Below are positions 1,198 to 51,573 of a DNA stretch of 64,000 nt, in pieces (position 1 is the first letter of the stretch; the number at the start of each line of letters is the position of its first letter). The translations under genes and the position numbers were made by a program. The notes beneath the pieces are model-generated. The model was not told the DNA's origin. It made no database searches and worked only from the letters and a program-made list of their open reading frames with translations. Origin of the DNA: Spironucleus salmonicida (Eukaryota); the NCBI RefSeq assembly GCF_000497125.1, contig NC_090601.1, positions 1,054,001-1,118,000 of the forward strand, given 5' to 3'.

Positions 1198-2769
1198 TCA
1201 TTACTATCTTAATGCAAGTACACTTGTTGCTACCACTGCAACGATAGTTATCAAGCTTATGATTACCCAAAAGTAAATCAAAATAATACTTTTTTGGTCT
1301 ACTATGACATTCAGACTAAGCTGATAGTCGTACTCGTTAGTAATAAAAATACGCGTTATAAATGATTTTTTAAGCTCTTGTATAAAGCCCTTTTGCCGGA
1401 CATGGTAGTCTCCAGGAAAGAATGGAAATTGGCTATGTTCAATCGTATCAGCTTCACTAAAGCACTCAGTAAAAAAGCTCTTATTCTAGATTACTAACCT
1501 CTTCTTATATACTTAGAATTGAATTCTTGACTGTGTGTCGGACGTCATTTACAAAACCTCCTGCTGCTAGGTTAGCACTCCATCTTTGTATTTATCTAAG
1601 CACTCCGGGGTCAAAGTGGGGAATACGATTATGCAAGTATCCTTGAAGCTTACTTAAGTAATAATTTTATAAAAACAGGACTGAATGGGTGCATATTCAA
1701 TAGTTTACTCTGAAATAATTTCCTGGTTTGCGTCATAAAAGCTTATAAATAGTTATTAAGTTTGCCCAGTTAAATTTTGCGTCAATAAAGACATATTCTC
1801 AACATCAAAAAAGAATACAATCCCTGTTCTTTCGGCGAAACCATTTGTTGCCTCTTGTCTTACCTATTATGTTTTCTAAAATACACTTGTTGCCATGATA
1901 AAGCTGCTGCTAATACATGTTTTCAAGCTTGAAAGATCAGCTATGTTTTAGATGGCCGTCGATGTTACTATGGTTATTAGATTTAGATCAGTAATACAGT
2001 TATTTGTATCTGTCTATATCTATATTACCTCTCCAAAGATTTATTAGCTAAGACTCGAACCAGATTACGTATAGTTTAGTGAAAGTCTCATCTTCAACTG
2101 GCGATCTTTCTGAAACTATTTGAAGAAACTTAATAGTGATTATTAAATATCTGCAGACGACGTTTCTGCGAAAATTTGGTAGTTGTGGGTGTCCAGGTGC
2201 ACGAAGGGGAGCTTGTAGTAGGTGGCTGGCGACGATGAGTTTGGGGCGATAGGGATGGAAATCCAAGTGCTGTCTACTTGGTACTGGAACTCCACAGCGG
2301 GTGTGCTGATCTGGCAGTCGTTCGGCTCTGCGTTAATACTCAGGTATGAGTTTCTGGAGCGGTTGTACACAAGAGTTACGTTATTCCAGCAATTTGATGT
2401 GTTAACCATAGTGTGTTAAATTAAGCTAAAAGTACCTGGGACGGATAGTTCTTTTCCTAAGACAATTTCATATGATATTATCGAAAGCTCTGTCATGAAG
2501 TTGAACTATGCCATTTTGACATCATTAAAGGTTATTTCTAATGGTATCCCACTTTGATATGTAAAGTCTGTTGATAAGCTTTAAACTGCACCATCTTAAA
2601 CATAATGCAGTGTGGCGATGGATACGGTATTATTAAAAGCTAAGCAGTGTAATGTTTAGTTTTTGGTAGGAGAAAGATGCAGATAAAACTGGGATCTTTA
2701 GAGTCTTCCAATTAGGGAGGAATCCTCATCAAAGCAGTGAATTTAGTCTTGCAGAATAATAAGCAACAT
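1198..2769 (-). CDS. Type I membrane/surface protein (523 aa), paralog of 33649-35229
   Basis: Open in code 6 from ATG 2769 (MLLIILQDQIHCF) to TGA 1198. C-terminal TM IILIYFWVIISLITIVAVVATSVLAL. Shares VNTSNCW, YQV.STW.SIPIAP and YKLPFVHL with the paralog. Confidence 0.8.
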
Positions 2770-3567
2770 TATTAGAAACTAAAACTTATTATATAAACCA
2801 TCTTAACTATTATAGAGATTTATATTTTGAAAAAATAAATCGTCGTATACTTATAATTATATATTAAATATAATTATAAGAATAAAATTTAATTTAATTT
2901 TCGGTTGTTATAAGCCTAAAAAATTAGATAATACATAGTAATATTACATCTTAGTATAATTCCAGACCATTATTATTAATAAATGTTATTAAAATTAAAA
3001 TAGTCCTAACAGTACAATAAAATATTCTCTTATTCAACAGTGAAAACAAATTAATATATGTAAAGCTGTAAAAGTCCTGTAAAATATTTTTTGTTACTGA
3101 TATTTATCTTAATATTAATATTTTATATTAAAACTAACAAGTGTGATTAAAAACAAAAAATTACAAGATATGAAAGATATTAATTTAGTTCGCTTTTTCA
3201 TTAAATTGTAATGTAAATAATTAATTAAATAATGAATATATTCTATTAATTATTTGTTTTCTTAGTTTATTCCTTTATTGATTTATCTTGGAGTAAATTA
3301 TTATATGCGTATATTAAATATAATAATATTTAAAGCACTCCTATCAAAAAAAATTTATAAGTAGGTACTATTTCGGAGCAGGATCAAGGTTTGACAATAG
3401 TGGTTTTAAAATTTTCAAAACTGTTTGACATAAAATTGACCATGGTCGCCAAGGGCGTCCGGAAATCAAAGATTTCCATTAAATAAATCATTAACTTAAG
3501 CTGCTCAGGGATTAGAGCACAACGCACCCTCTACATACACACAACAAAAATTAAAAATAACACGGTT

Positions 3568-4110
3568 TCACATTCCACACCGTGTTAACCTTTTAGTTAC
3601 TATTTAAAATAGATTCTCAACTAATTTAATAAGTTCCTTTCGTTTATTGTTTTTTAAAACTATATTAATTAATTCTTATAAATAAATCTTACATACTTTA
3701 GATGAAGTTGATTAGTTCTCTTACAGAATCGTATCTAAAATAATCATCGTGTTGTATAGTCTGACGTCACCCTATTTATTACCTTTGAAACAATACTCTG
3801 ATAACGCTACAACTTATTCGACCCTGTCATACAATAATCTATCTGTTAGTGCTAAGGAAATATATATTACTATTAGTATTTTACTATAATGTTCAAACTT
3901 TAATAGTGACGATTGCATGTTATTATAATTGGTTTGGCTGAAGTTTGCTTTAGATGGAGGTTCAACATCAGAGCTTTTTGGAAGTACTTCAATATTCTTG
4001 ATAACTTCTTTTGAGTAGTCTTCTAAGCTTTCTTACTTCTACATAACCTATATCGCTTCTTTGTAAGTTGGTTTTGTTTCTTGATCTTTAACTATTGCTT
4101 ATCGATCCAT
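3568..4110 (-). CDS. Element-associated hypothetical protein (180 aa)
   Basis: Code-6 ORF MDRQAIVKDQETKPTYKEA...NNKRKELIKLVENLFQIVTKRLTRCGM*, co-oriented with the ATPase and pPolB. Confidence 0.55.
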
Positions 4111-4217
4111 TTTTGTTTATTAAAAAAAGGTTTCTTTAAAATATACGTTATGATCTTTAAGAAGTGGAAGCCCAAAGGCGACCATAGTTATTTGGTTTTT
4201 GCTTAAATCCTTTTGGA

Positions 4218-4625
4218 TCAGAAATATAGTTCTCTTGAAGCTGGCTCAATAGCTTAAATAGCTTTCACTTGTTTTTCATCTAATAAATATTAGATTTGTT
4301 TATAGTATGTACCAAACTGACATGTTTCAATCTTGTTAATTATTATATACTTGCTATAGGCTTGCTTAGTGCTAAGTACATCAGGAGTATTATAATAGTT
4401 CTATTGTGTAAGTTCTTAAGGTAACACAGCTATTACTTGTTTATCTTTATTAAGCAATCTTATTTATTCAACTTTGTTATATACTTTATTACTTTCAAAT
4501 TTCTGCTTAGTACTAGTTTCATTAGTTATTTTTATGGGTTCATTGTTTACTATTACTTCGATGAATGCGAGATCGTCTCTTTTGTTTTCTTCAATCAGTA
4601 GTTTTATATTTATGAACTTTACCAT
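4218..4625 (-). CDS. Element-associated hypothetical protein (135 aa)
   Basis: Code-6 ORF MVKFINIKLLIEENKRDDLAFIEVIVNNEPIKI...EPASRELYF*, directly downstream of the ATPase. Confidence 0.55.
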
Positions 4626-4685
4626 TTCTTTGGTTAAAAAAATGAAGGTACTATCATTTAAATGTAGATAAAAATTAACAGATAC

Positions 4686-5655
4686 TCACTTAACTTGCTT
4701 ATCAAAGTTTATAAAGATCATTGGGTCTGGTTAAATAATTATATATAAAAAACTATATTTGAACTGTCCTCTCTTCGAATAGTCGTTTCCAAAATAACCA
4801 ATGGATCTATTATACAATTCAATAAACTATTTCGATTCGAATTCTTAACTTGTTATCCTTCCAATATCCTCAAAGATATATTTTATATGTTCTTCCTTGA
4901 GACCATTCATTAACAAGAAAGCTGTAAACAACTATCTAAAAGGTACATACAGTATCTTAATAGAATATAAACATGAAATGGTTGCCCAAATCCCAAGATG
5001 TCTTCTTTAAATAATTAGTTTATAGAAATCAGATTCAGTTGTAGTTTGGGATACTGAACTTCCACTCATGTCATCTAATAATAAAACTATTTTTTATCTT
5101 CGTATCCAATATTTATTATACCGTAAACCAATTTATTCATACAGCAATGACATATACTAATCAACATCATCACCTAAACAGTCTTTCTATAAAACTAAGC
5201 ATTCTTAATACTGTTGCTTTACCCATTCGAATTGTGAAAATATGTTTTTGAAAACTTGGAAGAATAGTTTTTGATCTCCATTTTTTAATTTCTTTATCTT
5301 TTAAAGTAGTTCGTATCTAATCTTATATTATCAATCATAGATTTATAATGGTTTTCATTTTCTATAATTCTTAACATAACATTAATAACTTTTATTTTGA
5401 TGTCATTCCGTTCGAATCAACAAATGGTATATTAATTCTATTGTCTTTGCTTTTTGATTTTTAATAAGTTTAATCACAATCGATAGTTGGACTTAAGAAG
5501 AACGTATGAGTTATAGCTCCATTATTTAAATGAGCATCATCTAAATTATACTTTGATAGTTTACTTTAATCTTAATACGCTTAATTTATCTTATTCATCG
5601 AAGACGTATTGCCTGTTCCTGCTGAACCCATAAGTGCAAAATAACTGTAACCCAT
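4686..5655 (-). pseudogene. A32/FtsK-like virion DNA packaging ATPase, disrupted
   Basis: Walker A-like FALMGSAGTGNTS (catalytic K replaced by N), ITHTFFLSPT, Walker B IVLLLDD, arginine-finger IQRRHLGI, C-terminal KYSFLYI...INFDKQVK*. Span is not a multiple of 3, with the frame broken at ~5330-5400. Confidence 0.85.
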
Positions 5656-5872
5656 TATTTCAATTTAGACCCTCTGAGGTCCGGATGGTTGCGTCCGAGT
5701 ATTTTTTTGTTTTTTATATCAAAAATTGAATTTCGTCTGATTGGATATTGTACTCCATGGGCGCTGAAGGCGTCCGGGAAGCTTTGCTTTCCATGCTGTT
5801 TTATTAATCCAAAAAATGAACGACTAAAGTGATTCGCTAAAGTGAATCGGACTCCAAAATGGATTACATGAA

Positions 5873-8800
5873 TCACGATTATACTTTATCATATCCAAAA
5901 GGTAGTGTCGATATTTAACCAGCTCTTGAACTAAAATCAATAAGCCTCTTTTATTACTATTACCTAATTACTTTATATCTTGTGTGAGTGTATATGTTAT
6001 ATATTTTATTATCTCTTATAAAGTTTAGATCTTTTTACTTTTATCTCAGCGTTTGAGTCTCTCTTTTAAATACTACCGTCCTCGTTAACCTATATTTAAT
6101 CAAACAGTATTGGTTTATAAATATCGAACACATGAACAAGCTTCCCTTCTTCTGTTTCAATAATACCTGTTTTTTCTAAGGTGATACCTTTTGGTGTTTA
6201 TGCATATCTAACTCCATCTGTATATGCATATTACTTCGCTCCTATACAAACCCATTCATTTGGATCAAGTTTCTATTCGCATTTGCAAGAGTATGTGTTC
6301 TTGAATGTTACTGAAGTTAAGTTTGTGTACTTTACTCTATCTAAAACACAGTAAACTGAATCTGTATCAGCGTATAAGACAGTTCCTTTTAATTCATCAT
6401 TTACATATCTTATTAATGTATAACGCATAGTTCTTGCTACTGTTGTTATCGTTCCTGCCAAGGATGCATTTGATTAGGTTCTTTATGTTTATTACAACTC
6501 TTATTCGTATGCATAAGTATTCTTAATCATACTTATCCAATTAATTCAATTTATAATTCTTATGCAGCTCTTCGTCATGCATACCAAAAAGGAATTCACC
6601 CTTATCAAACGACTCCGTTGGTATTACAACATTCTAGCCTGTCTTACCATACGTTGAATTTAACAATAGTTTATAGAAGGTCTTTACTCCTTGGTTTAGT
6701 TTAAGTTACCTATATTCAACTCCACTCTTTTATTTGATTGATGCTATGCCATCGTTATAAATATAGTCAAAGGTACAATCATTTGCTAATTGCTTTAGTA
6801 CAGCTTCATCCTTATAATCATCTTGATCTGAGTTCAGTGTCTTGTTGAACATCTATGAATTAATGAAGTTTCCTCCTTAATATTAGTTATCATTAAAACT
6901 TGATGTTTAGTAAGTGTGTGCCTCGTATTTCTCCCCGAACTTATGTCCTTCGTATAAAGCATTTATCAATTCAGTTCCATGCCATACTCCTGTAAGTATT
7001 ATTTCATCTTCATTGTGGTTGTAACGTGCATGATTGTTTACATCTAAGCATTTCTATTCCGAACATGTTCTGCAAAGTGGATATAGTAACTTAGCACAAA
7101 TGTTAGTTCCTAAAACTGGGTACTTTAATAACTATGGAGGAAGCATTTGACATTTGATTTAGATCAATCTTTTATGGTTATCACATCCTTATAAGAAGTA
7201 CTACAGCATTGCTTCGGAGTTAATGATTCTTGGGATCTATTTAACATACTACTTTACTTAATCAATATACTTTTAATCTATTTTAAATTTGAATTACTTA
7301 ATATTATACTCGTCGTGTATCTTTGAATCATAAATAGTGTTTCCGTAATGCGTTCCAATAACTAAATCTATTAATGGCCAGTTCCCAAATACCATTGCAG
7401 ATGGATACAGCTATATGAAATCAATTCCGTACATCTTAAACTTCTTCTTGTTTATTTTCATGTGATCTGTAAAGCACTATGCTCTTCCTTCAGTCAAAAT
7501 TGATCTGTTGGTTATGTCAACGCGTTTAGGTACTTCTATCTTTACATTGTTATCTTTTTCGAATTGTATACACTGCTTGTGAGTTACGTGAAATATTTAC
7601 ACGAAGCCATTGAGTTTTATTTTATCATTTAAATCTTAAGTTTTATTATTATGAGCTTCTAATCTTTCATGTTATAATATATGATATTCATCTTTGCAAC
7701 TTAGTTCTTTTAATCCATGATAAAAGGTACCATCTAACTCAAGCCCATATTTCTTATTATCAGCCGTTAACACCATGTCAATGTTGTATCTTGATCCTTT
7801 GAATTGCTAGTTATATAAAACATTTAATATTTATTAAAACCAGTATCTAATAATTTATTTACTAATTAAATATCTTATTAAATTAATTAAGACAACTTGC
7901 ATTCACATTTAGATTTGTTATGTTTTAAATCTTAGAATCCATTTTATAATTATGAAACACAATGATGAGTATTTAAGTTCATAGCCATTGCTGGTGCTGT
8001 TAAATAATTAATGATGTTGACTTTTTATTCCTGAAGTGAGATTTCAATTTACTTCCTTATTGCTACAGCTAAAACGAAACAGTCTTGAATGCAGTAGTTT
8101 ACGTATTAAGTAACATAGTCAATATGCCCATACTCAATTACGTACTATTCAAACTCATCTTTTGACAAGTTATTAAAATGTTTTAACTATAGGTTGTTTG
8201 AATCTACAAGTTGTTTTATGGTCATTAGTTTCCCCCCTCTTTCAATAAATTAATCAAACATGTTTTTAGTCAGGTACGTATATGACTGCAGCTGTTTTCC
8301 TACAACAAGTCTCAAATCTAAGTCTTTATTTAATTTAGACAGTGGCATAGGAATGATTCTAAATGAATCTTTAAAATATATATTATCAATTTTAGTTGAA
8401 GTAGTTTGATATTATTAATTATAGTGTCAGTCTTATAGTTTTCAACTCCGCATTTTGATACTTCAGATAGTAATAAATAATTATCATATGCAGCTGCATT
8501 GTGAGCGTAGAAATCGTATACCTTATATTTCATATCTACAAGTTTCATATGATCAATAAACTTAATTAAGAATTAATCATTTGATGGAGTAAAGTTACCA
8601 TGTTGTATAAATGTAAGGTTATTTTTATAAAAGAAGTCTTATTAAGTATATTCATTCTTCGCTCTATCATATTTCATTATACACCAAGATACTAAAAACG
8701 GTATGTGTTGCATTGAAGCTTTGTCTTTTAATTCTTCTGGAACGTTTTCAAAGTAGCTTTCAATATCCCAAACTACGTATGACTTTTAATCTTTCTTAAG

Positions 8801-10713
8801 CAGCCCTTCTTTAAAGTATAACTCATCATGTTATAATTTTGCATAGCAGTTACTCATACTACTATGAATCCTACCACAATTAACACAAGGCGTAAATAAT
8901 TAACAAATATCATTATTTCTTTTTAAGCATTTAGTATTAGGTTCATGGTTTACTCTAATATTGCAATTCTCGCATTAATGATTCATGTTATTTTAATCCA
9001 ATTCATGTTTGTAACAACAGAGCTAACAATAATATTCTTGATCAACTGCTCCTACTAGAACACAGTTTTTACATTTGTTTCTACGGTATGTAAACAATCT
9101 ATGTTAGTAGCAATAATTATAATCTTTGTAGAGTGGTTTGATAGTATTTACGTATTATTTATATTCCATAATTACATTGTAATGCCCTTTGTAATTCGCT
9201 GTTTTGTTTTGAACAAGTAATAAATCTTCTGTACGAGATGGTAAGATATCATTTTAATTTGCTAATGTTAATCTTAGTATATTTAATTCGAATACGCTTC
9301 CTGCTCTTTAAACTATTTCCTCCCCTGATAAATCATCTCCAACAATGCTTATAAATCCAAATAATAACTAAGTAAAGAAATATAGGTTATAACTTTTACA
9401 TTTATTGAATAGTTTCTAAGTTATCTTCCATGACTGAATGCATCTTTAGGAATCATGTATATTTAATTATTAATTTTAAAAGTATATTTACCATTAACAA
9501 TAAGTTGTTTTTTTAATGGATGCTGAAATTATTGCTGCATATAAACACTTTTCATCATTATTTCTAACAAAGAATATTGATCTTTTATAAAGATATTTTA
9601 TTTATTTATCTTCTTCATATGCATTTCCTGAATTTTTGCGAAGTAAGCCTATTTAAAATCCGTAGTCATAAGTCGGATCCCATTCATTAAACATCTTATA
9701 GAACATTTCAAATACCTCAAACAAAGACTCAACTAAATCATCAATATTAATCTCTAAAACTTGCTTAATACCAATATTTGAAAATGATAATTCACCCTTT
9801 AAATTTCTTTATACAGCAAATTTTTGTACTATCCGCCATTATTTCTTTAAATGTTTGTATTTAAACCTCTTTCTCTTAGTTTTAATTTAACAAAATAATG
9901 CGTATAATTTTTTATTGTAAACGATATATTATACTATTATAAAAAGGAATGAGTTAATATTACCGTTAACTCTATCTGCTGACATGTAAAGGTTTCGCCT
10001 GCGTGAACTGTAAAAGACAAATTTCTATCGAATTCAATTAAAAACTATTCTATCGTTTCGCTACGTGGTAAATTCATTTATGGTAAGCTACACTCGGTAT
10101 TAATTCTTTAATTCAACTTAACGTTATCTACATTAAATTAATCATAATATATACTTATTCATTAATTTTAATTTTTGAATCTGATTCCTTAATAGTAGTA
10201 AGTATATTATATATCTATTTAAGTCAGTTTTCGGAAATAACTCCTTAAAGTGTATTCGTATAGATTCTCAAGTACATCTTTAAATTTTTCTATTTTAGCG
10301 TTTAACAAATTAGTTTCTCTAGTTTTATATTGTTGTGAAACGTATTTTTAGTGTAAAGTAATATTTATTAGTTTATTCTGTTTAATCCTTTAAAATAGTT
10401 CTGTGCTTATATTCTTTTTAATATTTGGTGTAGTAATCAATTTTAATTTTATCTGATTGCTAGTGTGACATGATCTTTCTTATTTTAGTATATGTTATTT
10501 TAAGAGAATAGCTTCATTGTAATTTAAGTTATCTTTTGATACTTTATATTTCAGTAATTTAATATGAAGATGCTATAATTTATATTGCTATGATTTTTAG
10601 TAATACTCTTAAAGAGATATCTCTTTCTTCAAGTACTGTTATGAAACTTATTACAATGCTTATAGAATACCTTTAGTGTCTGATTATACAAGTTTGGTGT
10701 GATTGAGCTACAT
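5873..10713 (-). pseudogene. Protein-primed family B DNA polymerase (Polinton/Maverick type), multiply frameshifted
   Basis: N-terminal RNNDEKCLYAAI and Cys-rich region. ExoI VVWDIESY, ExoII YAHNAAAYD, FKDSFRIIPMPLSKL, ExoIII NYCIQDC, nuclease-like insert LELDGTFYHG. Motif A DFIQLYPSAM, MLPP..LKYPVL..KLLYPLCRTC..LTGVWHGTEL, motif B KLLLNSTYGKTGQ, motif C LYADTDSV, terminal TLPFGY. Frame changes near 8380, 6500-6600 and 6060. The 5' start is uncertain (10713 or ~9985). Confidence 0.92.
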
Positions 10714-11155
10714 TTTATATGGGTTTAAAAAATTAATTTGTTAAATTACAGCTTTTTGCTTTTACTATTTTAATCATATTTTATTTTTTGATTTTAAATA
10801 AATAAAATGATCTATAATTTTGATGCTCTGATTTTGTTTAATGCGACCCACCCGCCCAGCAATCTCTAAAGCAATCGCTTTCGGGTCGGGCCGCTTGCTA
10901 TGTTATTTTTCTAAACTATTGGGTTTCTATTTTTTTAATATTTATGTTTATTGATCATTTATTAATCAAATTTGTCTTTGACTGCATTCAATTAATGGAG
11001 TAGTAAGTAATACTTACTAAAAGTATGGTTCAGTCGGCTTCGATTTAAAATACGGCAAGTCATTGTTATGATGACAACACTATCATAAAATGACTTTGGT
11101 GGGTTTAAAACTGAATGCAGCAGAAAGTTGTTTTTGTTCTTAGCTACTTACTCCT

Positions 11156-12189
11156 ATTATATTTATGTCTATAATAAAATGCATTTTGAGTGTAAATTGA
11201 TTCTCATCAGTTACTTTGATGAGGTAGATGAAAATAACATTTACTATCTTAATTTATTGTAAACTTATATATGAATGCATATGAAATAATATCTTCTATG
11301 AGGTTTATATACTACAATTAAGTTCATAATATTATTTTAAGGGATTAATAATTTAAATTTTTGCAAAAATAGCTGGATCATTTATAAGTCAGTGAAATAG
11401 CTTTTATTTAAATTTCTGGCTGAATAAACTTATGCATAGTTGATACTGCCTATTTCTATAGATAAATCTTTTTAAATTTTAATACTATATAGTTATACAT
11501 TTAAACTAATAGGTAATATAATGTCAATAATACGTAGTTGAAAATTCTATCTAATGTTATGGATCTAGAAACCTATTAGTAATGAAAATGCCACCTTGCA
11601 GTTAATGTATCCTATGTTATAGTTGTGATTTAATGAATCTTGACTAACTTAGTGTCATAAAATTTATTTATTATAATATCAATAGTGTTATTATTTTTTA
11701 TCGTCAAATTTTACTTTGGTCTTAACTCCTTTAAGATTAATTTTTTAGGTATTAAAATATATATTGATGTTAAATTTTAAAATACTAAAAGCTTAAGTGC
11801 TAAAATTCATTATTTGAATTATATATTAGTACCATACATTTTACTATTGTATTATATAATAATACAGTAAAAATATATACTTTATTAGGTTTCATTCTAA
11901 CATTCATAAAGTATTTTGTATAGCTACTTAGATATTATCTCTGAACAAATAAAAGATATTCTATTATTATACTACGGAATCAGTATAGCCTGGGTTATTA
12001 GTTAAAATAACCAGTTAATATCAAAAATTTATTTCAATATTAAACAAGATAATTACGAGCTGTTTGCATTCCTATATAAATTTACAATAAATTAAGATAG
12101 TAAATGTTATTTTCATCTACTTCATCAACGCAACTGATGGGAATCAATTTACACTCAAAAATACTTTTATTATGCATATGAATATAATA
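11156..12189. repeat. MITE-like unit: ~125 bp imperfect inverted repeats (11156-11280 / 12065-12189) around an AT-rich spacer
   Basis: ttttgagtgtaaattgattctcatcagtt...gtagatgaaaataacatttactatcttaatttattgtaaa matches the reverse complement of ~12079-12160 with few mismatches. Confidence 0.75.
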
Positions 12190-12297
12190 ATCATATAAAA
12201 TCAAAATGAGTAAAAAATATTAACATTTTCGATAATACAAGACACTAAAAATAGAAATTCGTAGACTCAGTTAACTAAACAATAAAAAGGAAACATT

Positions 12298-14070
12298 TCA
12301 CTTCTTATAGCGCTTCATCAAATAGTAGACAACTCCACACCCGATTCCTCCAATTAGCACCATCATAGCTATTACAATACCGGCAATTGCGCCGCCGCTA
12401 AGCTTATTTCCATCCTCCACAGGCACATCAGGATCTTTTTAGCATACTGATCCAATCAGTGTATGCCCAGCGAGACACTTCATACACTTCCCAGATTCGT
12501 CTTTAAGTATGCCTTTCAGGCACTTTTCGCACTGAACCGTCTTCAAATCGCACGTAGCACAGTTTACGTTATCCCCGCACTTGCACTGACTGTCGATACC
12601 CTCTGCGCAGCTGGCTGCAGCGGCGTCTTTGCAATACTGCCCGTTCTGAAGGTTTGCGCATCCCTTAACACATACCCCGGACGTCGTTGCGACGAAGCCT
12701 GCACTGCAAGAGCTGCAAACAGTACTAGAAGCGCAGGCGGCGCAGTTTGCGCTGCAATTTCCGCAGAGTCCAGTGGCGCTGTTGCAAAATTACGAAACAC
12801 CCCCGGAGCAGTCCTGGCTGCTTCTACAGCTCACAATGCACTGCTTGGCGCTAGGGACCAGAGAGTATCCAGATTTGCACTTCTTGCACGTCGAGGTATC
12901 CCCGCAGGTCTAGCAGTTTTGGATGCATGATGCGCACTTTCCGGTCGTCCTGTCGCAGAACTCCGCGACCCCGTTTTTGCAGTCCTTATCGCCTTTGCAA
13001 GCCAGGACGCACTTCCCAGCTGGGTCAGAAATGTACCCAGTGGCGCACGTCGTGCACGTTCCCGCATTCGCGCAAACCGCGCAGTTCACGGGGCAGCGCT
13101 CGCACTTTCCGCCCACCAAAAAGCTCCCAGAAATGCATGTCGCGCACGTCGCACCACTGCACGAAAGGCAGTCCGCCGTAGCGACGCCGTCCGCGCAGTA
13201 GCAGCCCTGACCTGGCTTGATGGCGGCGGAGCACGGCTTGCAGAGGAGAATCTTCGTCCCCGTGGCATCACAGAAATAGCCCGCGCGACAGCTTGAGACC
13301 TCGGAGGAACAGGTACCAGATACCGGCGGGACGTTGTTCTTGGGCCAGCAAGAGCTATTGAGCAGCTCGTAGCCCTCTGCGCAAACGAGGCACTTCCCAT
13401 CCCTATCCTTGCTAGTGTTCGGGACGCATGTTGCACAAGAATTTCCGGAGGAGGTGCAGGACGCGCAGTTGATCGCAAACCCGCACTTGCAGTCCGAAGT
13501 GAGCCCAGGGGCGCAGGTCATGGCGGTGCCGTTCTTGCAGTACTGTCCGTTCTGCAGATTCGGGCATTCGGTGGTGCAGGTTCCGTCGTGGTTGAGGGCG
13601 TGGTCCCTGCTGCTGCATTGCGTGCAGACATTGTCAGCCAGGCAGAACTCGCAATTATTGCGGCAGGCCTTGCAGGTTTTGTTGCTCTGGTCGCAGAACT
13701 AGTTCTCGCCGTAATCGCATTCGCTGTTCATTTTGCAGACCGCCTCGCACCGTTTGGTCGCCGTGTTCATGAGGTACCCATCTTCGCATGCGAGGCAGGT
13801 CCGGCCGTCGACGCAGCGCTCGCAGCCAGGAATGCAGTCCTCGCACGCGCCGTTTTCCAAGTAGGTGGAGTCCACGCAGACCGTGCAGACCCCGCCAGCG
13901 CATTCGCGGCAGTGGGGGGTGACGACGCTGTCCTAGCAGTTGCAGCTGTTGAAGTAGCCGGTTTATTCGGAGCACACCAGGCATTTTCTGCCTGGCTATC
14001 CGTCCTCGGGACAGTAGAAGCCCGCTTTGCAGGAGCTCAGGAAGTCTACGCAGGTTCCAGGATCGGCCAT
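12298..14070 (-). CDS. Cysteine-rich membrane protein (VSP/CRMP-like), 590 aa
   Basis: Single code-6 ORF with many CxxC motifs. C-terminal [31 protein letters not shown] and KRYKK tail match the [KR][KR]x[KR][KR] tail of Spironucleus CRMPs. Ends AAG-TGA. Confidence 0.93.
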
Positions 14071-14287
14071 TTTGTGAAACGGAATAGGCTGGGAAGGGTA
14101 TTGCACCCAAATAAAAAGCGTGAAATATACGTAATATAAATTAGATTTGCGGATGAGGTATTCAGAAAAACTGGGTTTCTAAAGACTGGGCGCGCGACCT
14201 TCCAAGGTCTAGCGCGGCAGCCTGCTGTGAGGCAAGTTATAGTGCTGCCGCGGCGTTTCTAGCGCCGGGCCGAACGTACTATATGTA

Positions 14288-14443
14288 TCACTCCGCATCT
14301 AGGAAGAAGCGCCGTGCCGACGGGTACTTGCTGCCGGACAGCTGGAGCGAGTCGTCGCCCTCCATGGGGAAGCCAGCGGGGGCCAGCACGCAGGCGAGGT
14401 GGGGCCTGAGGGTCTGGTTGCTCTGGCGCACGATCGGTTTCGT
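14288..14443 (-). CDS. Small DDSLQLS-family protein with ACG in place of the ATG start (or pseudogene)
   Basis: ACG-KPIVRQSNQTLRPHLACVLAPAGFPMEGDDSLQLSGSKYPSARRFFLDAE*. GC-ending codons, C-rich leader, GAG-TGA end. Confidence 0.5.
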   Translation of the reverse strand, partial: TKPIVRQSNQTLRPHLACVLAPAGFPMEGDDSLQLSGSKYPSARRFFLDAE

Positions 14444-14837
14444 TTTGGGTGGGGCCTGGGAGGTGCGATTTTCGTATACTAGAGGCCGGCGATTCTACGG
14501 GAAAGGGGGTGCTCCCGGAGTCCATTCTGGCGGATACTCCGATTAGTGGAAACACACTCTTCGGGTCCAAACTCGCAGCAGAAGGGTATACAATAGGGGG
14601 TTCTTTTCTACAGTTCGGCCAACCGGATACGTGGGTATGTAGGCCGAAAGCGGGCAGGTGGGCCGATTCGAAAATGCGAGGGCCTAATTCTGAAGCATGG
14701 GGACGCATTACCCTGGGCACGGCCCTATGGGTGCGAGGGAGAGCCAGGCTGGGCTGTAGAGCAAGTGTAGCGAGACCCCGCGCTCTGGGCCGGATGGGGC
14801 CGAACCCTCGCGATGTCGTACCCGCTGAACCGATGAG

Positions 14838-15070
14838 TCAGAGCCCGACTAAGAGCTGCCCTGCGAGGTTCAGCAGCGCCATACCGGCCTGGCTGACGCC
14901 CTGCGTGAGCGTGAGCTGGACCGAGAGGAAGACCAGGATGTAGCTGGACAGCAGCGCCTGGACGAAGGTGACGACCAGGCATCCCACGCACACGAGGCCC
15001 AGGCGGTGCTTCTGGGCGCGGGCCAGCAGCAGACCGAGGCGGGCGAGGTGGAGTAGGGGAAGAGGCACAT
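14838..15070 (-). pseudogene. Frameshifted, internally shortened paralog of the small TM protein at 15760-16119
   Basis: MCLFPYS start resembles MTFFPYA. A different frame gives LLLARAQKHR...TFVQALLSSYIL, resembling MLIFRVRKHR...TIVQTVLTSAFL. Confidence 0.45.
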
Positions 15071-15397
15071 TTCTCGGGCGACGGGATCCGGGTATAATGG
15101 TATTCTGCGGAACCATGGAAGTCCGGGCAGGCTATAGGTTTATGACTGGAGCGGGCCCAGGCCACCCCTTGTCCAACACACGCACCGGATGCACCCAATT
15201 GGCCACCAATCGCGATGTTTCTGCCACTCCAAATGCGCTTCTGGGGCAATATGTATCAACCGGCAGATGCCCAAATCACAGTATCAATACCGCGACGCTT
15301 GCGAGACTTTACTCCAAGAAACTGAAAAGTTTTTTCTGTAGGATAGGTTATGGCGATTGCTGCGAATGCCGGCCCAATTATCTGCTCAGCCGACAAA

Positions 15398-23453: not shown

Positions 23454-24019
23454 ATGACTGGAGAAGAAATAATTAAATATACTCATATTATGTTCACTTA
23501 ATAGTTTCAATTATGTAAAATAATTTAAAATAGGCAAGGTAGCAAGGTTTAACTATCAAAGGTTTTACTATATTTAAAATTGACTTTTGTGTGATTATAT
23601 TATTCATAATTCAACTAAAAAGAATATAGTGATCAAATTTGTATTAAAAACTATGCTTAGTTATATAATATATGTAATGTTAACCTTCTAAGGGTACTTA
23701 TATATAAATTTAACTAAAATCAAATCAAAATTCCGGAATGAAAATTATAGTAATTGATCATATCAGATAGGATATAAATATTTCAATAAGAATATTGATC
23801 CTGCTAAATTACATAATTATCAATATAAATATAAGTTTATAAGGTTTTCCTTACATAAATTGAATACTTAGTTTTTTTATTAGTAAATAACTGAGCCTAT
23901 TCATGATGAGGTGAAAAATCTAATATAAACTTATAGAGCAATCAATCAACCACTTCAGATGCGCACCGCCTCCCTCGCCCTCCAGCGGCCCGGTGCTCCC
24001 CGCGCACACTGCCGCTGCC

Positions 24020-24430
24020 TCAGCCGTGTCCGAGCGCCATCAGCCAGCCCTGCAGGTCGTCCGTCGTGCGCACGGTCTCGAAGTCCGGGACCTCCTCGTC
24101 GGCGAAGATCACCACCCGCACGCCGCGCACGGCCTCGCTGCGGCTCAGCACCTGCAGGTCGTACAGCTGGGCCTGCGCGTCCCCCGGCCCCACCACGTAC
24201 ACGAGGGCGCAGCCGGGGTGCAGCTGGTGGATCCAGCGCGCGCGGGCCTGGTCGTCGCACAGCGGCTCCACGAGGCGCAGGGCTCCGTGCAGCGCCACGA
24301 GCGCGCCGAGGTGCGGGTCCAGTGCCGGCTCGAAGCCAGTAATTTCCTGCATGAGGCGCGTCTTCCCGGTCCCGGGGTGGCCCAGGACCAGCACGGTGCG
24401 CAGCTCTAGGTTCTGCGCGCAGCCTCCCAT
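24020..24430 (-). CDS. Divergent ARF-like P-loop protein, copy 1 (136 aa)
   Basis: MGG start, VLVLGHPGTGKT, ARWIH, ALVYVV, VRGVRVVIFA, LQGWL follow ARF/ARL layout. G3 and G4 motifs are lost. Confidence 0.7.
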   Translation of the reverse strand: MGGCAQNLELRTVLVLGHPGTGKTRLMQEITGFEPALDPHLGALVALHGALRLVEPLCDDQARARWIHQLHPGCALVYVVGPGDAQAQLYDLQVLSRSEAVRGVRVVIFADEEVPDFETVRTTDDLQGWLMALGHG

Positions 24431-24631
24431 TTCTGGCTGCCAGGTCGATATTATTATATAATTATTATAATAAATCAAACTATTACTTTCCGCTCCATTT
24501 TTATCTATATACTATATTATACTATATTAAAAACTATTTTCGAATTTCTGTTTATCTAATATTATTTTTATTTTTATAATTATGATTATTATATACTAAC
24601 TAACCGATCCAAACCCCAACAAACAGCTCGC

Positions 24632-27445: not shown

Positions 27446-27502
27446 TTGATTTATTATAATAATTATAATAATTATATAATAATATCGACCTGGCAGCCAG
27501 AA

Positions 27503-27913
27503 ATGGGAGGCTGCGCGCAGAACCTAGAGCTGCGCACCGTGCTGGTCCTGGGCCACCCCGGGACCGGGAAGACGCGCCTCATGCAGGAAATTACTGGCTT
27601 CGAGCCGGCACTGGACCCGCACCTCGGCGCGCTCGTGGCGCTGCACGGAGCCCTGCGCCTCGTGGAGCCGCTGTGCGACGACCAGGCCCGCGCGCGCTGG
27701 ATCCACCAGCTGCACCACGGCTGCGCCCTCGTGTACGTGGTGGGGCCGGGGGACGTGCAGGCCCAGCTGTACGACCTGCAGGTGCTGAGCCGCAGCGAGG
27801 CCGTGCGCGGCGTGCGGGTGGTGATCTTCGCCGACGAGGAGGTCCCGGACTTCGAGACCGTGCGCACGACGGACGACCTGCAGGGCTGGCTGATGGCGCT
27901 CGGACACGGCTGA
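27503..27913 (+). CDS. Divergent ARF-like P-loop protein, copy 2 (136 aa)
   Basis: As copy 1. Head-to-head with the 27445 ATG, 57 bp apart. Confidence 0.7.
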   Translation: MGGCAQNLELRTVLVLGHPGTGKTRLMQEITGFEPALDPHLGALVALHGALRLVEPLCDDQARARWIHQLHHGCALVYVVGPGDVQAQLYDLQVLSRSEAVRGVRVVIFADEEVPDFETVRTTDDLQGWLMALGHG

Positions 27914-28674
27914 GGCAGCGGCAGTGTGCGCGGGGAGCACCGGGTCGCTGGAGGGCGAGGGAGGCGGTGCGCATCTGAAGTGGTTGATTGAGGCTTTAGT
28001 TTAACAGAAGTTTACTGATAAGTATTACATTAATTTGAGTTGATTTATTAATATGATATTCAAATTGTTTCTTATAGAGAGTTTATTATGCTCTAATGAA
28101 AGTAACATCACTGTTGTTATTACAAAGTAATATCGGATGAATCTAAATTGATAATATAGGTTTATTTTAGAAAATTTTAATATGTACGGAAAGAAACAAT
28201 TTAATAGAAAACTTCAAAGTTTAATACTAAGAATATTAATATTAAATTTTATTCATTTAGCTAATAGAACTATATAAAAATAAAATAATATACATTTATG
28301 AAATTAATTATTGACATATTAATTTTTAACTAGAAAACAGATAAATCTTCACTAGTTTTTTGAAACCAAAAAAAGAATGAGTTTTTTCTTTCAGTAGAAA
28401 ATAAATCATTGAGATCCGGGATAGGTATTTAGTAAAGTTAACATTTTGAAATAATAATTTTATCGTAAATATAAGATGCATTTATAAGCTGTTTATTAAG
28501 TTAAAAAATATAATTAAATTTAAGCACATATAAAATTAGATTTAGTTATTTTATTGATCAGGTATTTCTGTGAAATCATTGTATTCATGCTAATATAACG
28601 ATTATATATTAGATGAAAAGAAAAGAATATAGAATTATTATAACAAGGATATACTTATCATATATTACATTAAA

Positions 28675-30297
28675 ATGCAGTTTGTACTAACAGTAACTTC
28701 GTAATTGTTGCTCTTTGATGATATTTAGTTTACAGAGGATAGATTTTATAACCCTCAGATTATTGAAAACTGCTTTGCTATAAATACTATATTAGAGGTA
28801 AATATAGACACTGGTTAAATATGTGTTGTGTTCGATATGCAGTATAATCCAGACTGTGATTAAATACTTCATGGTATTTATCTCGATATATAAGTTTCTA
28901 ATTGTCTTGATAGCGTTATAAGAGGTTAGATACTTAAGTATAATTATAAAGAGGATGGTCTCCTTTGCTATTATTGTCCTCTTATAGGATCTGACTCTAC
29001 TTGTAAGTTTATTTAAGAAACTTTAGCGGCCACTATTTATATTAAGTCATTGAGTAAAATGACAAATTTGCCAGTTGGATAAATAATAATAGCCCACCCA
29101 ATTAATTCAGGTTGCTATGATGATTCCTTAAATTAAGTATTTTGGTCGACAGATAAAGCTATTATTGATATATACTTAACAGGATAATGCCCAAATTCCG
29201 ATAAAGACATTTAGATATTTATATTTTATCTATATGATTTGGATAATCAAATTATTGAGCTCAATATAAGTGGATATAATGAATTGGGCGATCTTATATA
29301 TAATGAAGAATCGATAGATAATCGTGTCTAGATAACCGTAAACTATGATTTTTCAAAATATGTGCTGGATAATTTCAACTAGATGAAGGTTATGTTTTAC
29401 ATCAAGTTTAGTACCACAACAATTATTAAAACGGCATATATAAGCTTAATTTAAAGTTCATAACTTGATGTTATGTATATTAATGTTACATTTACTGTTT
29501 GGGCAGGTAGATTCAGTTTAATAGCAGATAGACTCGAAAATGCAGTAGAGCTTAACGCATTATTTATACCATAAATGCGCAAAATAAGACTTAGATATTA
29601 GATTTTTAGTATTATTACAGCAGATACAATAGATAACCTATTTTTTTGATTCATATAGCGTTGACTTTACTTTTATATATAGGGGCATTGTGTGTGATGA
29701 TAGAAACGACGGTGGGGAGTGCTCTAGAATGCTGCTAGTGCTTCAAAATATGAATCTTCTTGATGTTGAGATATTAATCCACTACTACTTCTATGATGAC
29801 TCTAATTAGGTGTATTTGTATTCTTCTACCCGAATACCTTCTGTATAAAATACCTGCTGGTCATCAATCTAAACAACCTTTAATGTAGGTGAGGTATGCG
29901 GGAACTTCATCCGGAACGCCTTCTCCCGGCAGTGCCCCTACCTGGAGCCGCAGCCCACCGAGTTCACCATCCAGATCGGCGACTTGGTCCTGGCCAAAAC
30001 CCTCGCGTACCAGATGGACCAGCTTGCCGTGTGCGTGCAGTGCCCGGCTTTGAATGCACCCGCCAGATTAAATAGTTATACAGGGTCGGCGCGCCCATCA
30101 CAATGACCTTCTCCTCCGGCGGGCGGCAGCAGGTCATGAGGCCCAGGCTTATATTTAACAATGACCATTCGGTGTTAACAGAGTGTTTATTCTATTTAGG
30201 TTGCGCAGTAATAATATTTTTAGTTGGTATATCTATTTATAAAATATTAGAAGTAAAGCTGGGCATTACTCTTAAGAGGAAAAGATTGTAATTTTGA
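28675..30297 (+). pseudogene. Chimeric surface protein gene: AT-rich 5' part, GC-rich 3' part matching the 48721 paralog
   Basis: MQFVLTVTSQLLLF...ENCFAINTILEVNIDTGQICVVF aligns with the 48721 gene. Frameshift at T-run 29641, abrupt switch at 29897, second frameshift at ~30045. Confidence 0.8.
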
Positions 30298-30325
30298 TGA
30301 TATTTGAGATGAATAATTTTTGAAC

Positions 30326-31105
30326 TCAATCTTATTTGATAATAAAGTAGTGCATTACTAAATTAACGCGAAACTAAATTTCTTTAAACCATATGATTGA
30401 CTTTTAGTTGCACATGGTTTCAATCATAAATTTAGTGATAATGGTGATATTCGCGATCAAATTGATATTATTCTCAGTTAAATTTATTTATTTTACTTCT
30501 AGGACTTCCATTTAACCTCCACCAACCTAAAAATTTAATGCTGTAAAAGTTGAAAACGGTATAATTTATATACAATTTAACTAAGATCTGCCACACTCAA
30601 CTAGACTACCAGTTGGATTTGCTATACAGGATACACATCTCAATCTTTGCATCGATGCAGGATATCCTACACCTAAGCGATTTAGAGACTAGCAATAACA
30701 GTTACGAGACAGAGCCCATCTTAGGCATCACCAGCCTTTATAGTAAACTTACCTGCTCAAACTGTAGTATACTTCATAGTAAAACGGTTCGCATATCCGA
30801 TGGCATCCTATTTACTGGATTAATCGTGAATACAGTAGCAATTATGTATTTGCTACTATAGTGGTCAGTACCCCATGGTCAGTTACATTAAAACTGATCT
30901 TCATTTAAATAATTTTAGCAGTATCCGGATAGCCCAAGTCGCTCTGGAAGGCAACCGGAGCCAGACATGCCTGGAACTTTGGGAGCACCCAGCGGTATTG
31001 GCACGACTATGCGGTTAGAGCGACTTGGATAATGTCCTGCTGTGCTCCAGGTTCATTGTTTATCTCATTAGGTACGCACTTAATATACTATATATCATTA
31101 TTCAT
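30326..31105 (-). pseudogene. Nonsense-mutated copy of hypothetical gene 50381-51160
   Basis: Same frame, but GGA is replaced by in-frame TGA at 30728-30730. Confidence 0.5.
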
Positions 31106-31222
31106 TTAGAAAAACTAATTTTGTTGTTTTTAATAATTTCTCCTGATAGTAAAAACAAGTTGCACTTCTTGACTGGCTGGAACAATAATAGGTATTACTG
31201 TTATCTAGGCCCTTTTACTAGA

Positions 31223-31462
31223 ATGGACCCCATTAACCGAAAAGTCCAGATCGCGGAGCAGCAGAGCGTCATCGACAACATGTTCCTGGCGGGGCAGCTC
31301 AAGAAGAGCAAGACGGCGTGGGACCTGGCCACCGAGAAGGACGAACCGCCAGCATCAACCTCTGGCAAGCAGCCGGCCCCGAACCGCAACCACGACCGCC
31401 CGGAACTGGGCGAAGTCCTCTCCGTCCGTGAGGCCAAGAGCGCCGCCAAGCTGTTCGATTGA
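31223..31462 (+). CDS. Small hypothetical protein (79 aa), copy 1
   Basis: MDPINRKVQIAEQQSVIDNMF...AAKLFD*, GC3 bias. Confidence 0.7.
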   Translation: MDPINRKVQIAEQQSVIDNMFLAGQLKKSKTAWDLATEKDEPPASTSGKQPAPNRNHDRPELGEVLSVREAKSAAKLFD

Positions 31463-32237
31463 TTGTTTTGAAATACACTTATATATACTCAGCAATACAA
31501 CGTCCTCTTTCCGCAATAATGTGGACCACGCGGACAGAGCGCTCCTCTTCGTACATCAAAATCAATAAAGACACCGAGACAATTTGACTTGGTATTTATC
31601 ACGAAAGTTGCATTCCTGTACAAAGTAACTGAATTTTAGCTACGTATCATAGGTATTTTTAAACTCAGCAATTATTTCATTTATCTACATGTTAGTATAA
31701 TCTAAAATAACTATGAGAAAATACAATTTTATACTTCTAAAACACTATATTAGCTTTGAACCTACATCTTTATTATGCTGTATCTTGCTTATTCTAAACA
31801 TTACCCAGCTCAATTAGTTATAAATCTGGATTTTAACTCCATGTTCTTTATTTCAATAATAAACCAAATTCCTTGATTTACAATAGTTGATTTACGTCAA
31901 TCCACTTAAATTTTACAGACCATATCATTGTATTACATTTAAATTTAGTTTTCTGTAAAAGTTAATGCTCCGTTCCTTCTTTCTATCCATTTTGACTCTG
32001 TAAACCTCATTTTTTTCAGTTACAGGGTTATTATGTCATTGGAAAAGCTGGATTAACTGCCTCTTTTCCATTCAAATTGCCGTGTTAACCGTTTTATTAG
32101 CAATAGTAGAATATTATTATTTTCTCGAGTTTTATATGATATAGTACTTATAAAATTTTACCGAAACGGCGCGAATCGTAAGTAAATCTTCAGGCCAGGC
32201 GCTGCGCACTAAAGATAAATTGAAGGAGCAGACAGTT

Positions 32238-36868: not shown

Positions 36869-38513
36869 ATGTAAGATATGCTGTCAAAAATTATAAACGC
36901 AATGTTGCTAAAAGATGTTAAACCTGACGAGAATTCATGTATTTTAATCTCAGAGCCACTTAGTAACTGGTACAAAAGGAACAAGATTATTTACGTTAAC
37001 CTTGCTGCCGGTCAGAGGTGAGTAGTCTTCGACTCGGATCCCAACCCCGAGTGCGAGCAACTGCCGCAGGGGATTTACCTCGACATTCAGGTTTCCAACT
37101 TCCCAGACAGCGTCATCCGGGCCAGATTATGAACTACAGCTACAGGGACGACGCCCGCCTCTGCTACTCGTGCCCGGCCATCGGGTCGGACTCCACCTGC
37201 CAATTCATCCAGGAGGCGCTGGCTGCCAACATCTGCATCAAGTCCCTGACCCGGATGACGACCCTGCCGGTGGGGCAGATCCTCATCGCGCACCCGGCCA
37301 ACTCAGGCTGCTACGACAGCGCGCGGAACGAGATATTCTGGCAGGCGGACAAGGCCGTCGTTGAGCTCCATCTGGCCGGGGAGTGCCCCAACTCAGACAG
37401 GGCCATAGAGCATTTCGCGTTCCAGTTTTTCGGCCTGGCTGGCGACATTGTAGAGCTGGGCGTCAGCGGGCACGACGGGGCGGGGGACCCTGTATACACC
37501 GAAAGCGCGGCAGGGAGCCTGGTGCAGATCACCGTAAGCTACGACTTTTCGAGATGGGTGCTCGAGAACTTTAACCAGCTGAAGGTGCTGTTCTACATAA
37601 AGCTGGACACCACCACCATTGTGAAGCTCGCGGCCATCAGCATGATCCAGAGCGCGCAGCTAGACACGATGTACGCCAGCGCCATTTTTACGGTTTGGGC
37701 GGGGCGGTTTAACATCGTTGGCGACGGCCTCGCGAATGCTGCGGAGCTGAACGCCCTGTACATGCCGCAAATGCGCCGCATAAGGCTGCGGTATTAGATA
37801 TTCAGCGTGATCACAGCGCGGACGATTGACAATCTGTTCTTCGCGGCTAACGACTTTGACTTCGCGGCCATTGACCGAGGCATCACGTGCGACGACTCCA
37901 CCGATGGCGGGGAGTGCTCTCGGCTGATCGGAGTGCTTCAGAACATGAATCTGCTGGAGGTCGACATACTGGTGCATTACTACTTCTATGACCAGGCCGA
38001 TACGGCATACTTGTACTCCTCCACGCGGATAACCTCTGTCGAAAATACCTGCTGGTCCTCGATACTCGCCACTTTTAACACCGGCGAGGTCTGCGGGAAC
38101 TTCATCCGGAACGCCTTCTCCCGGCAGTGCCCCTACCTGGAGCCGCAGCCCACCGAGTTCACCATCCAGATCGGCGACTTGGTCCTGGCCAAAACCCTCG
38201 CGTACCAGATGGACCAGCTTGCCGTGTGCGTGCAGTGCCCGGCTTTGAATGCACGCGCCAGATTAAATAGTTATACAGGGTCGGCGCGCACATCACAATG
38301 ACCTTCTCCTCCGGCGGGCGGCAGCAGGTCATGAGGCCCAGGCTTATATTTAACAATGACTATTCGGTGTTAACGAATCGAATATTCTAGTTGTATCGCA
38401 CAATCACACCTTTAGTAATAACTCTTACAATTTATTAGATATTATAAATAAAATGTGGGTTTTTAAATTGTACAGGTAAAGCAAGTAAAGAAACTAATTC
38501 CCATGATATATGA
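36869..38513 (+). pseudogene. Mosaic surface-protein copy: decayed homologous ends around a core (37022-38374) near-identical to 48871-50223
   Basis: 5' MQDMLSKII...SNWYKRNKIIYVNLAAGQR*VVF and 3' TIYQILQIKCG...NSHDI* align loosely with the 48721 gene. In-frame TGA at 37019. Confidence 0.8.
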
Positions 38514-50362: not shown

Positions 50363-50380
50363 GATGAATAATTTTTGAAC

Positions 50381-51160: not shown

Positions 51161-51277
51161 TTAGAAAAACTAATTTTGTTGTTTTTAATAATTTCTCCTG
51201 ATAGTAAAAACAAGTTGCACTTCTTGACTGGCTGGAACAATAATAGGTATTACTGTTATCTAGGCCCTTTTACTAGA

Positions 51278-51517: not shown

Positions 51518-51573
51518 TTGTTTTGAAATACACTTATATATACTCAGCAATACAACGTCCTCTTTCCGCAATA

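Follow-up and report, generated by a model that had tools for sequence, protein, structure and literature searches.

A broken Polinton/Maverick-type DNA polymerase gene written in the TAA/TAG=Gln code of the diplomonad Spironucleus salmonicida

The DNA analyzed here (the "window") is a stretch of 64,000 nucleotides from the genome of the fish parasite Spironucleus salmonicida (contig NC_090601.1, positions 1,054,001 to 1,118,000; all coordinates below are counted from its first letter). On its minus strand lie the broken gene of a protein-primed family-B DNA polymerase (pPolB) and, downstream of it, the remnants that are treated here as parts of the same element. The first 12.3 kb of the window are AT-rich (24-30% GC) and are followed by GC-rich genes (52-60% GC). 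Under translation table 11, positions 2000-13000 hold only two open reading frames (ORFs) of at least 100 aa, both at the GC-rich edge; table 6 (code 6), in which TAA and TAG encode Gln and TGA is the sole stop, opens long frames in the AT-rich island. An earlier note, made from the sequence alone, had described positions 3440-10894 as a Polinton/Maverick-like endogenous virus in a diplomonad-like genome, had assigned to it a pPolB and an A32-type packaging ATPase, and had called it nearly invisible to standard-code ORF calling. The region indeed contains no ORF of 100 aa or more under table 11. The host was also correctly placed: S. salmonicida is a hexamitid diplomonad, and the code-6 ORF at 8312-9985(-) is an exact match to a recorded protein and clusters at ≥90% identity with six S. 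salmonicida proteins.

The polymerase was read as a collinear series of pieces on the minus strand (10033-8315, 8426-7497, 7902-6400, 6545-5940 and 6526-5876), and its start near 10077 was inferred from a sister copy, P0002. All of the polymerase motifs quoted in the earlier note were found on this strand where it had placed them. The exonuclease motifs Exo I-III and the polymerase motifs A, B and C occur in the correct order, spread over different frames, and tblastn searches with kin and with distant homologues returned ordered matches over 9184-5884 that mark the frame switches. The coordinates of all features are collected in Table 1.

Table 1. Features of the polymerase gene and of the sequences downstream of it (positions in the window; A1, A3 and A4 are alignments of pPolB homologues)
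Feature	Position	Strand	Basis or remarks
pPolB pseudogene	5873-10077	minus	~1400 codons, five frame pieces, code 6
Cys box NDEKCLYAAI (9530-9559) and His box KGHYNVI (9170-9190)	9170-9559	minus	conserved Cys/His columns in A3
Cys/His-rich, zinc-finger-like array	8846-9073	minus	A3 columns with invariant Cys/His; N-terminal to the exonuclease domain
3'-5' exonuclease	8076-8776	minus	Exo I VVWDIESY 8753-8776; Exo II FYAHNAAAYD 8483-8512; Exo III-like YCIQDCF 8076-8096
Vsr-like endonuclease domain	7519-7810	minus	inserted between exonuclease and palm; A1 profile
Motif A, GIDFIQLYPS	7399-7428	minus	motif search and alignment
LPPQLLKYPVL (7111-7143), KLLYPLCRTC (7063-7092) and LTGVW (6982-6996)	6982-7143	minus	invariant or near-invariant columns in A1 and A4
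Motif B, LLLNSTYGKTGQ (YGKTGQ, ending at 6634)	6634-6669	minus	Gln is TAG, 6634-6636
Motif C, LYADTDS	6357-6377	minus	frame differs from that of motif B
C-terminal TLPFGY	5891-5908	minus	yet another frame; TGA stop at 5873-5875
Broken P-loop NTPase-like remnant	4689-5718	minus	downstream of pPolB; pieces in different frames
Two code-6 ORFs of unknown function	4218-4685 (155 aa); 3568-4245 (225 aa)	minus	downstream of the NTPase remnant

A 501-aa piece of the polymerase was compared with 1.84 billion representative sequences using phmmer; 677 matches were obtained at E ≤ 1e-3, 38 at E ≤ 1e-10 and four at E ≤ 1e-30. Seven of the nine relatives that were scanned contain the Pfam domain DNA_pol_B_2 (E 1e-35 to 1e-50), and the domain is lacking in the other two, a spider fragment and a second protein of S. 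salmonicida. The pPolB alignments comprised 23 and 89 homologues. The profile of the first alignment (A1), which included the window piece, matched phi29 DNA polymerase in the PDB (E 3.8e-7). When an AlphaFold2 (AF2) model of the 501-aa piece (pLDDT 63, pTM 0.60) was searched against BFVD, protein-primed polymerases ranked first, encoded by parvo-/bidna-like viruses, a tectivirid and an adenovirus; three of these best matches reached E ≤ 1e-3. The top eight PDB chains for the same model were all phi29 polymerase, at E-values (0.04-0.45) that are not significant by themselves. Single-sequence PDB searches with two pieces gave chance matches only, a word-based homology search with the N-terminal ORF returned only its own cluster, and PHROGs searched with seven pieces yielded nothing below E 0.007, the best families all being of unknown function. 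The pPolB is thus confirmed by homology far above chance, but it is not a single open frame, even in code 6.

Polinton pPolBs have been described as carrying a vOTU-like domain upstream of the exonuclease (PMC11161782). The Cys and His boxes of the window copy sit in the place of this domain, whose name is taken from that description; the AF2 model of the N-terminal part is poor (pLDDT 48), and Foldseek placed Otubain-2 second at E 0.099, with nothing at E ≤ 1e-3. For the zinc-finger-like array, the A1 profile showed a weak match in the PDB to the zinc fingers of TRAF6/BRE1 (E 0.007-0.008). A frame break separates Exo II from the Exo III-like motif, and residues 584-958 of the homologue P0031 align to 9184-8028 (tblastn, E 1.6e-7). 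Three Vsr endonuclease chains (1vsr, 1odg, 1cw0) were also matched by the A1 profile, with E-values between 2e-4 and 3e-4, which argues for an endonuclease domain inserted between exonuclease and palm; the corresponding window piece by itself has a weak match to Pfam MTES_1575 (E 0.022). The series LPP..YPVL..KLLYPLCRTC..LTGVW is the best-conserved block of this pPolB group and is modeled with a pLDDT of 79-91 (residues 251-330). The A1 consensus terminates in T.P.GY. In the published layout of polinton pPolBs (PMC11161782), a terminal-protein domain is followed by vOTU, exonuclease and palm, and homing endonucleases are found as insertions; the layout predicted for the window pPolB is the same.

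The Gln of motif B is encoded by TAG, as had been claimed, and 98 of 117 non-diplomonad homologues have Q in this column. Along the whole reading path (1378 codons) there are 80 in-frame TAA/TAG codons and no TGA, whereas the two other frames contain 17 and 69 TGA codons; the last 56 codons of the path were taken in the frame matched by the kin protein P0159, and the TLPFGY frame is likewise free of TGA. When the residues of distant homologues were tabulated at the 10 usable TAA/TAG columns, Gln was the most enriched (4.2-fold; permutation p 4.5e-4), and it remained enriched with the motif-B column left out (p 0.007). At 27 such columns in diplomonad kin, the enrichment of Gln was 7-fold (p ≤ 5e-5). 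The kin residue was Q at 45% of the TAA/TAG columns and at 52% of the CAA/CAG columns, compared to 6% overall. The TAA and TAG codons therefore do not fall at random with respect to Gln columns, and the proposed use of the TAA/TAG=Gln code by the element holds. At one site, motif A, the Q is a TAG codon (7411-7413) in a column where all 18 distant and all three diplomonad homologues have Ser; hence, some TAA/TAG codons are not old Gln codons. The share of Gln codons written as TAA/TAG was 77-79% in the element, 0-7% in GC-rich host genes and 55-61% in two AT-richer host ORFs, and the code-6 ORFs of the element all terminate at TGA. An MFS transporter and a Mem_trans protein encoded elsewhere in the window match Pfam once they are read in code 6, so host genes in the window also use TAA/TAG as sense codons. 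The pPolB gene was kept open in the host's code, with TGA as sole stop and TAA/TAG as Gln. It was also considered whether the TAA/TAG codons at Gln columns had arisen from CAA/CAG by decay after the death of the gene; this was rejected, because in-frame TGA is wholly avoided and TAA/TAG is not.

The reading frame of the pPolB gene is broken in at least five places: near 9985 (as compared with the sister copy P0002), 8385, 7835, 6545 and 6030. Contigs from runs of 2014/15, which are possibly of the same strain as the assembly, are gap-free over 7689-8013 and 8087-8423; the breaks near 7835 and 8385 are therefore not assembly errors. The contig of another copy (11 differences) is gap-free over 7381-8450 and carries both of these breaks, which are thus real and common to copies. 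The contigs over 7381-8450 and 8582-10188 come from two runs that are guessed to be RNA, and no expression was deduced from them. Length differences of one or two bases between copies occur near 6545 and 6030. Of the six clustered proteins, P0002-P0006 stop at one common break, and P0007 ends earlier. The 23 substitutions listed between copies in the polymerase comprise eight synonymous and 15 non-synonymous changes, one being a TGA in a sister copy. These substitutions are close to neutral, and the window copy of pPolB is a dead pseudogene. A functional gene, its breaks being read by programmed frameshifting or its polymerase being made as separate polypeptides, would account for the two breaks common to copies and for the absence of TGA from all 1378 codons of a path with five breaks. 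However, overlapping contigs show the copies to be 97-99.7% alike, so that few new TGAs would be expected regardless. The substitution counts and the TGA in a sister copy, the replacement of the conserved motif-A Ser, the varying copy lengths near two breaks, and break sites in which no slippery pattern was recognisable by eye also speak against a working gene, which we consider very unlikely.

Other copies lie elsewhere in the genome. The sister pPolB copy P0002 is on the window's own contig, and kin of the NTPase remnant, at 82-92% identity, are on three other chromosome-size contigs (1.92, 1.73 and 1.70 Mb). Contigs from separate runs bridge both edges of the element to its flank, one at 3400-3692 (with 202 nt beyond) and one at 9674-11000 (a 1580-nt contig, with 253 nt beyond). 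The insertion is therefore not a mis-join, subject to the possible identity of strain mentioned above. This bears on the possibility of an artefact, i.e. contamination by the fish host or another Maverick-bearing animal, or a mis-assembled AT-rich repeat. The named non-diplomonad relatives are all animal proteins (two beetles, a damselfly, a mayfly, a spider and a nemertean; the others are metagenomic), as contamination would have it. Yet these animal proteins are only 27-47% identical to the window polymerase over the matched stretches, 80 in-frame TAA/TAG codons would leave the gene unreadable in an animal, and the same ORF is present in both the 2014 and the later annotation. Taken with the contigs that join both edges to the flank, these points make the chance of an artefact practically negligible.

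S. salmonicida has a second pPolB family (P0008, P0158-P0161), 55% identical to the first, at three loci on another chromosome (1,877,751 bp). One of its members, P0159, has a 709-aa frame that is open across three of the break points of the window copy. The automatic UniProt name of the proteins of this family is "DNA-directed DNA polymerase". Fragments 45-47% identical to the window polymerase were found in Hexamita inflata (P0014, on a 432,027-bp contig) and on an unnamed run contig (P0015). FastTree was used on 136 rows over query columns 236-440, without named reference polymerases and after rows with fewer than 100 aligned residues had been dropped. The window sequence, S. salmonicida P0010 and P0008, and H. 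inflata P0014 formed a clade with an SH-like support of 0.995. This clade fits the long residence in hexamitids that had been proposed. The presence of P0014 in it means that the lineage is common to a free-living diplomonad.

The gene context of the polymerase was sought among viral contigs. A scan of IMG/VR for pPolB relatives gave at least 544 pattern matches, from which five loci were confirmed. Locus L001 encodes a pPolB, an rve integrase and a Pox_A32 ATPase; in locus L004, the pPolB is followed directly by Pox_A32 and then by rve and a double-jelly-roll (DJR) capsid gene. The rve integrase ORF of L004 (3567-4646) also has a weak N-terminal match to Phospholip_A2_4 (E 2e-4). The three ORFs of locus L005 that were searched had no family match. 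A metagenome scan for diplomonad-type relatives produced 345 pattern matches, none of which was confirmed; both patterns held Gln, which is perhaps coded by TAA/TAG in relatives. The window pPolB shares with those of Polinton/Maverick elements and adintovirus-like viruses of animals and metagenomes (here L001 and L004) one collinear series of blocks: AHN...YD, FxDS, YCxxD, the Vsr-like insertion, SLYPS, LPP..PVL..KL.FPLCRTC, LNSxYGKxGQ, YxDTDS and T.P.GY. As in L004, an NTPase-like gene follows the polymerase on the same strand. The window copy is only 20-35% identical to these elements and differs from them in its code, its frameshifts and its length, far below 15-20 kb; an integrase, a capsid gene, a protease and a terminal inverted repeat (TIR) were all undetected in it. 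The relatives and their gene neighbors indicate a polymerase of the Polinton/Maverick-adintovirus type, which bears out the earlier assignment of the pPolB.

Downstream of the polymerase, the NTPase remnant has a Walker-A-like motif, GSAGTGNT, at 5605-5628(-), with Asn at the Lys position (codon 5608-5610). The motif IVLLLDD (5070-5090(-)), followed by RRHLGIW...VPFRQLF, lies 179 codons beyond it in another frame. In Pfam, the Walker-A piece had sub-threshold matches to AAA_30 (E 0.002), SRP54 and AAA_19, and the remnant resembles the A32-type ATPases of L001 and L004 by eye only. A viral-contig scan with the ATPase alignment recovered only the two loci from which it was built, and a search of the ESM Atlas with the kin fragment P0164 gave scores (0.75-0.79) inside the stated noise range. 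The two ORFs farther downstream have no family in Pfam or PHROGs. Summed contig depth, which is used throughout as a hint of repetition and never as a copy number, is above that of the flank over 3654-4669, so that these ORFs lie in a stretch that looks repeated. They are the remaining candidates for undetected element genes such as a capsid.

The recognisable part of the element amounts to ~6.5 kb, and the limits previously given (3440 and 10894) were not confirmed. The pPolB starts near 10077, the contig over 9674-11000 is at the low depth of the left flank, and 10100-10894 looks, by this hint, like unique flank. The element adjoins on its left the ORF at 1198-3033(-), which encodes 611 aa in code 6, contains 38 in-frame TAA/TAG codons and a membrane span at the C-terminus, and matched no family; it is probably a host surface protein and not an element gene. 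Since this ORF looks host-type and 10100-11700 appears unique, there is no room for an element of 15-20 kb.

Several other features of the window lie outside the element. A 125-nt inverted repeat (11155-11279 / 12065-12189; 89% complementary, 785-nt spacer) stands where the AT-rich island meets the GC-rich gene. The GC-rich ORF at 12298-15249(-) encodes 983 aa in code 6, with 13 in-frame TAA/TAG codons, many CxxC/CxC repeats, a membrane span at the C-terminus and a KRYKK tail. It has no Pfam match, and we take it to resemble the known cysteine-rich membrane proteins of S. salmonicida. Two pairs of direct repeats (29707-31579 / 49751-51634, 1.9 kb, 96%; 37013-38374 / 48862-50223, 1.4 kb, 99%) and one inverted pair (23942-24471 / 27462-27991, 530 nt, 99.4% identity) are present, and the code-6 ORFs beginning at 31428 and 51483 have identical first 50 residues. 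No tRNA genes were found in the 64-kb window and hence none near the edges of the element.

The window is likely to hold a dead, truncated copy of a multi-copy Polinton/Maverick-type element, or of an integrated polintovirus, that once replicated in hexamitids. A number of results weigh against this interpretation. Pfam DNA_pol_B_2 (PF03175) matched no window piece at E ≤ 0.1, nor did it match the kin P0159 (709 aa) and P0002 even at E ≤ 10; consequently, the family assignment is a transitive one, by way of the relatives. No rve integrase was found by Pfam in the code-6 ORFs scanned, a set that does not cover all small ORFs; PHROGs showed none either, and the rve ORFs of L001 and L004 matched nothing in the window (tblastn/phmmer). 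Neither a DJR capsid or penton protein (Pfam, PHROGs, the L004 DJR and the ORFs of the five related loci) nor an adenain-like cysteine protease (Pfam, PHROGs and the same ORFs) was detected in the window. A TIR was not found either, the best inverted match between 3000-4400 and 9600-12400 being 13 nt long. The repeated stretch seems, from contig depth, to measure ~6 kb, against the 15-20 kb of Polintons. As for the packaging ATPase, Pox_A32 (PF04665) did not match the NTPase remnant in Pfam up to E ≤ 10. A hidden Markov model (HMM) built from two A32 proteins gave the two pieces of the remnant E-values of 1.4 and 4.1 among 866 pieces; with an HMM built from 122 Pox_A32 proteins, all window pieces stayed at E-values of about 0.2 or worse, those at the top of the ranking being unrelated. 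Alignment of the NTPase pieces to A32 with hhalign returned probabilities of 0.5% and 0.7%. The A32-type packaging ATPase was thus not borne out, though the remnant may be the leftover of one. Nor was the description as an endogenous virus supported, as no virus module is recognisable: the Polinton-type pPolB in code 6 is there, but it is a pseudogene, the ATPase is unproven, and capsid gene, integrase, protease and TIR were not found.

The same absences could be read as signs of some other pPolB-bearing element, such as the remnant of a polymerase-only, capsid-less transposon, a linear-plasmid-like element, or an adintovirus- or PLV-like (polinton-like virus) fragment; in that case, the "Polinton" label would fit the polymerase only. 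The shortness of the repeated unit, as hinted by contig depth, agrees with this, and a parallel is known from Entamoeba histolytica, which keeps Polinton-type family-B2 polymerases and in which the authors report not having found integrase, protease or ATPase (PMC3511435). On the other hand, the only relatives with a visible gene context, L001 and L004, are of the full Polinton type, having rve, A32 and DJR between them, and the domain layout matches that of published polinton pPolBs. Moreover, the capsid genes of metamonads are described as too divergent for sequence searches and recognisable by structure only (PMC10120064; bioRxiv 10.64898/2026.06.19.733378), which makes the absence of a capsid by sequence weak evidence. 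Another kind of element is therefore held to be unlikely, and a copy of a Polinton/Maverick-type element is preferred. The ancestral element would have carried out protein-primed DNA synthesis from its ends and rve-mediated integration, as Polintons do. Since two of the frame breaks are common to copies, the present copies may have spread once the polymerase was already broken, through segmental duplication or mobilisation in trans.

Giardia uses the standard code, unlike Spironucleus, and Tetrahymena thermophila, like the window's host, reads TAA and TAG as Gln. A Polinton-type pPolB of Giardia intestinalis is already present in published trees (PMC4642659, legend to Fig. 6; PMC3511435); going by its description, it is like the window copy in its diplomonad host and its type of polymerase. 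The Maverick-Polinton elements of Streblomastix strix are described as using the host's TAA/TAG=Gln code, from which the authors infer a long virus-host association (PMC10120064, Bellas et al.). The Maverick-Polinton/PLV elements of Metamonada in that study resemble the window in having a metamonad host and, in Streblomastix, the host's code; they differ in having been found via capsid genes in an oxymonad and parabasalids, whereas in the window, from a diplomonad, the polymerase alone is recognisable. Unlike the broken window gene, the polymerase genes of E. histolytica are intact, and in vitro activity is reported for one of the enzymes (PMC3511435). The Tlr elements of T. thermophila are likewise large and virus-like, with a superfamily-1 helicase in place of the pPolB that is present in the window (PMC4028283).

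A literature search found no description of a Spironucleus/Hexamita pPolB family, and the combination of Spironucleus with Polinton/Maverick yielded unrelated papers only. The main texts of the S. salmonicida and Hexamita genome papers hold no Polinton, Maverick, viral or transposon-polymerase content; their supplements may hold lists. The novelty suggested in the earlier note is therefore limited by the known Giardia pPolB and the TAA/TAG=Gln elements of Streblomastix, although no description of the Spironucleus/Hexamita family itself was found. That note's interpretation is right in kind, and it overstated completeness and novelty.

It would go further to suppose that hexamitids (Spironucleus and Hexamita) carry an old polintovirus lineage of their own, fully adapted to TAA/TAG=Gln, with intact or recently active members elsewhere and with capsid and integrase genes too divergent for sequence searches. 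We regard this as doubtful at present; were it so, intact members would be conceivable in the 142-Mb, repeat-rich genome of H. inflata or in natural Spironucleus populations. The relic is not a new kind of system, and it offers an entry point to intact hexamitid polintoviruses. It gives a name to several S. salmonicida "hypothetical proteins" and to part of the diplomonad repeats described as "uncharacterised" (PMC11787283), and it shows that such elements escape screens made with the standard code. After Streblomastix, this is a second metamonad lineage with a Polinton-type element in the host's variant code, which supports a long association of virus and host. If the hexamitid lineage is real, its polintovirus would be the first diplomonad DNA virus known other than through the polymerase relics of Giardia, and a possible vector for these parasites.

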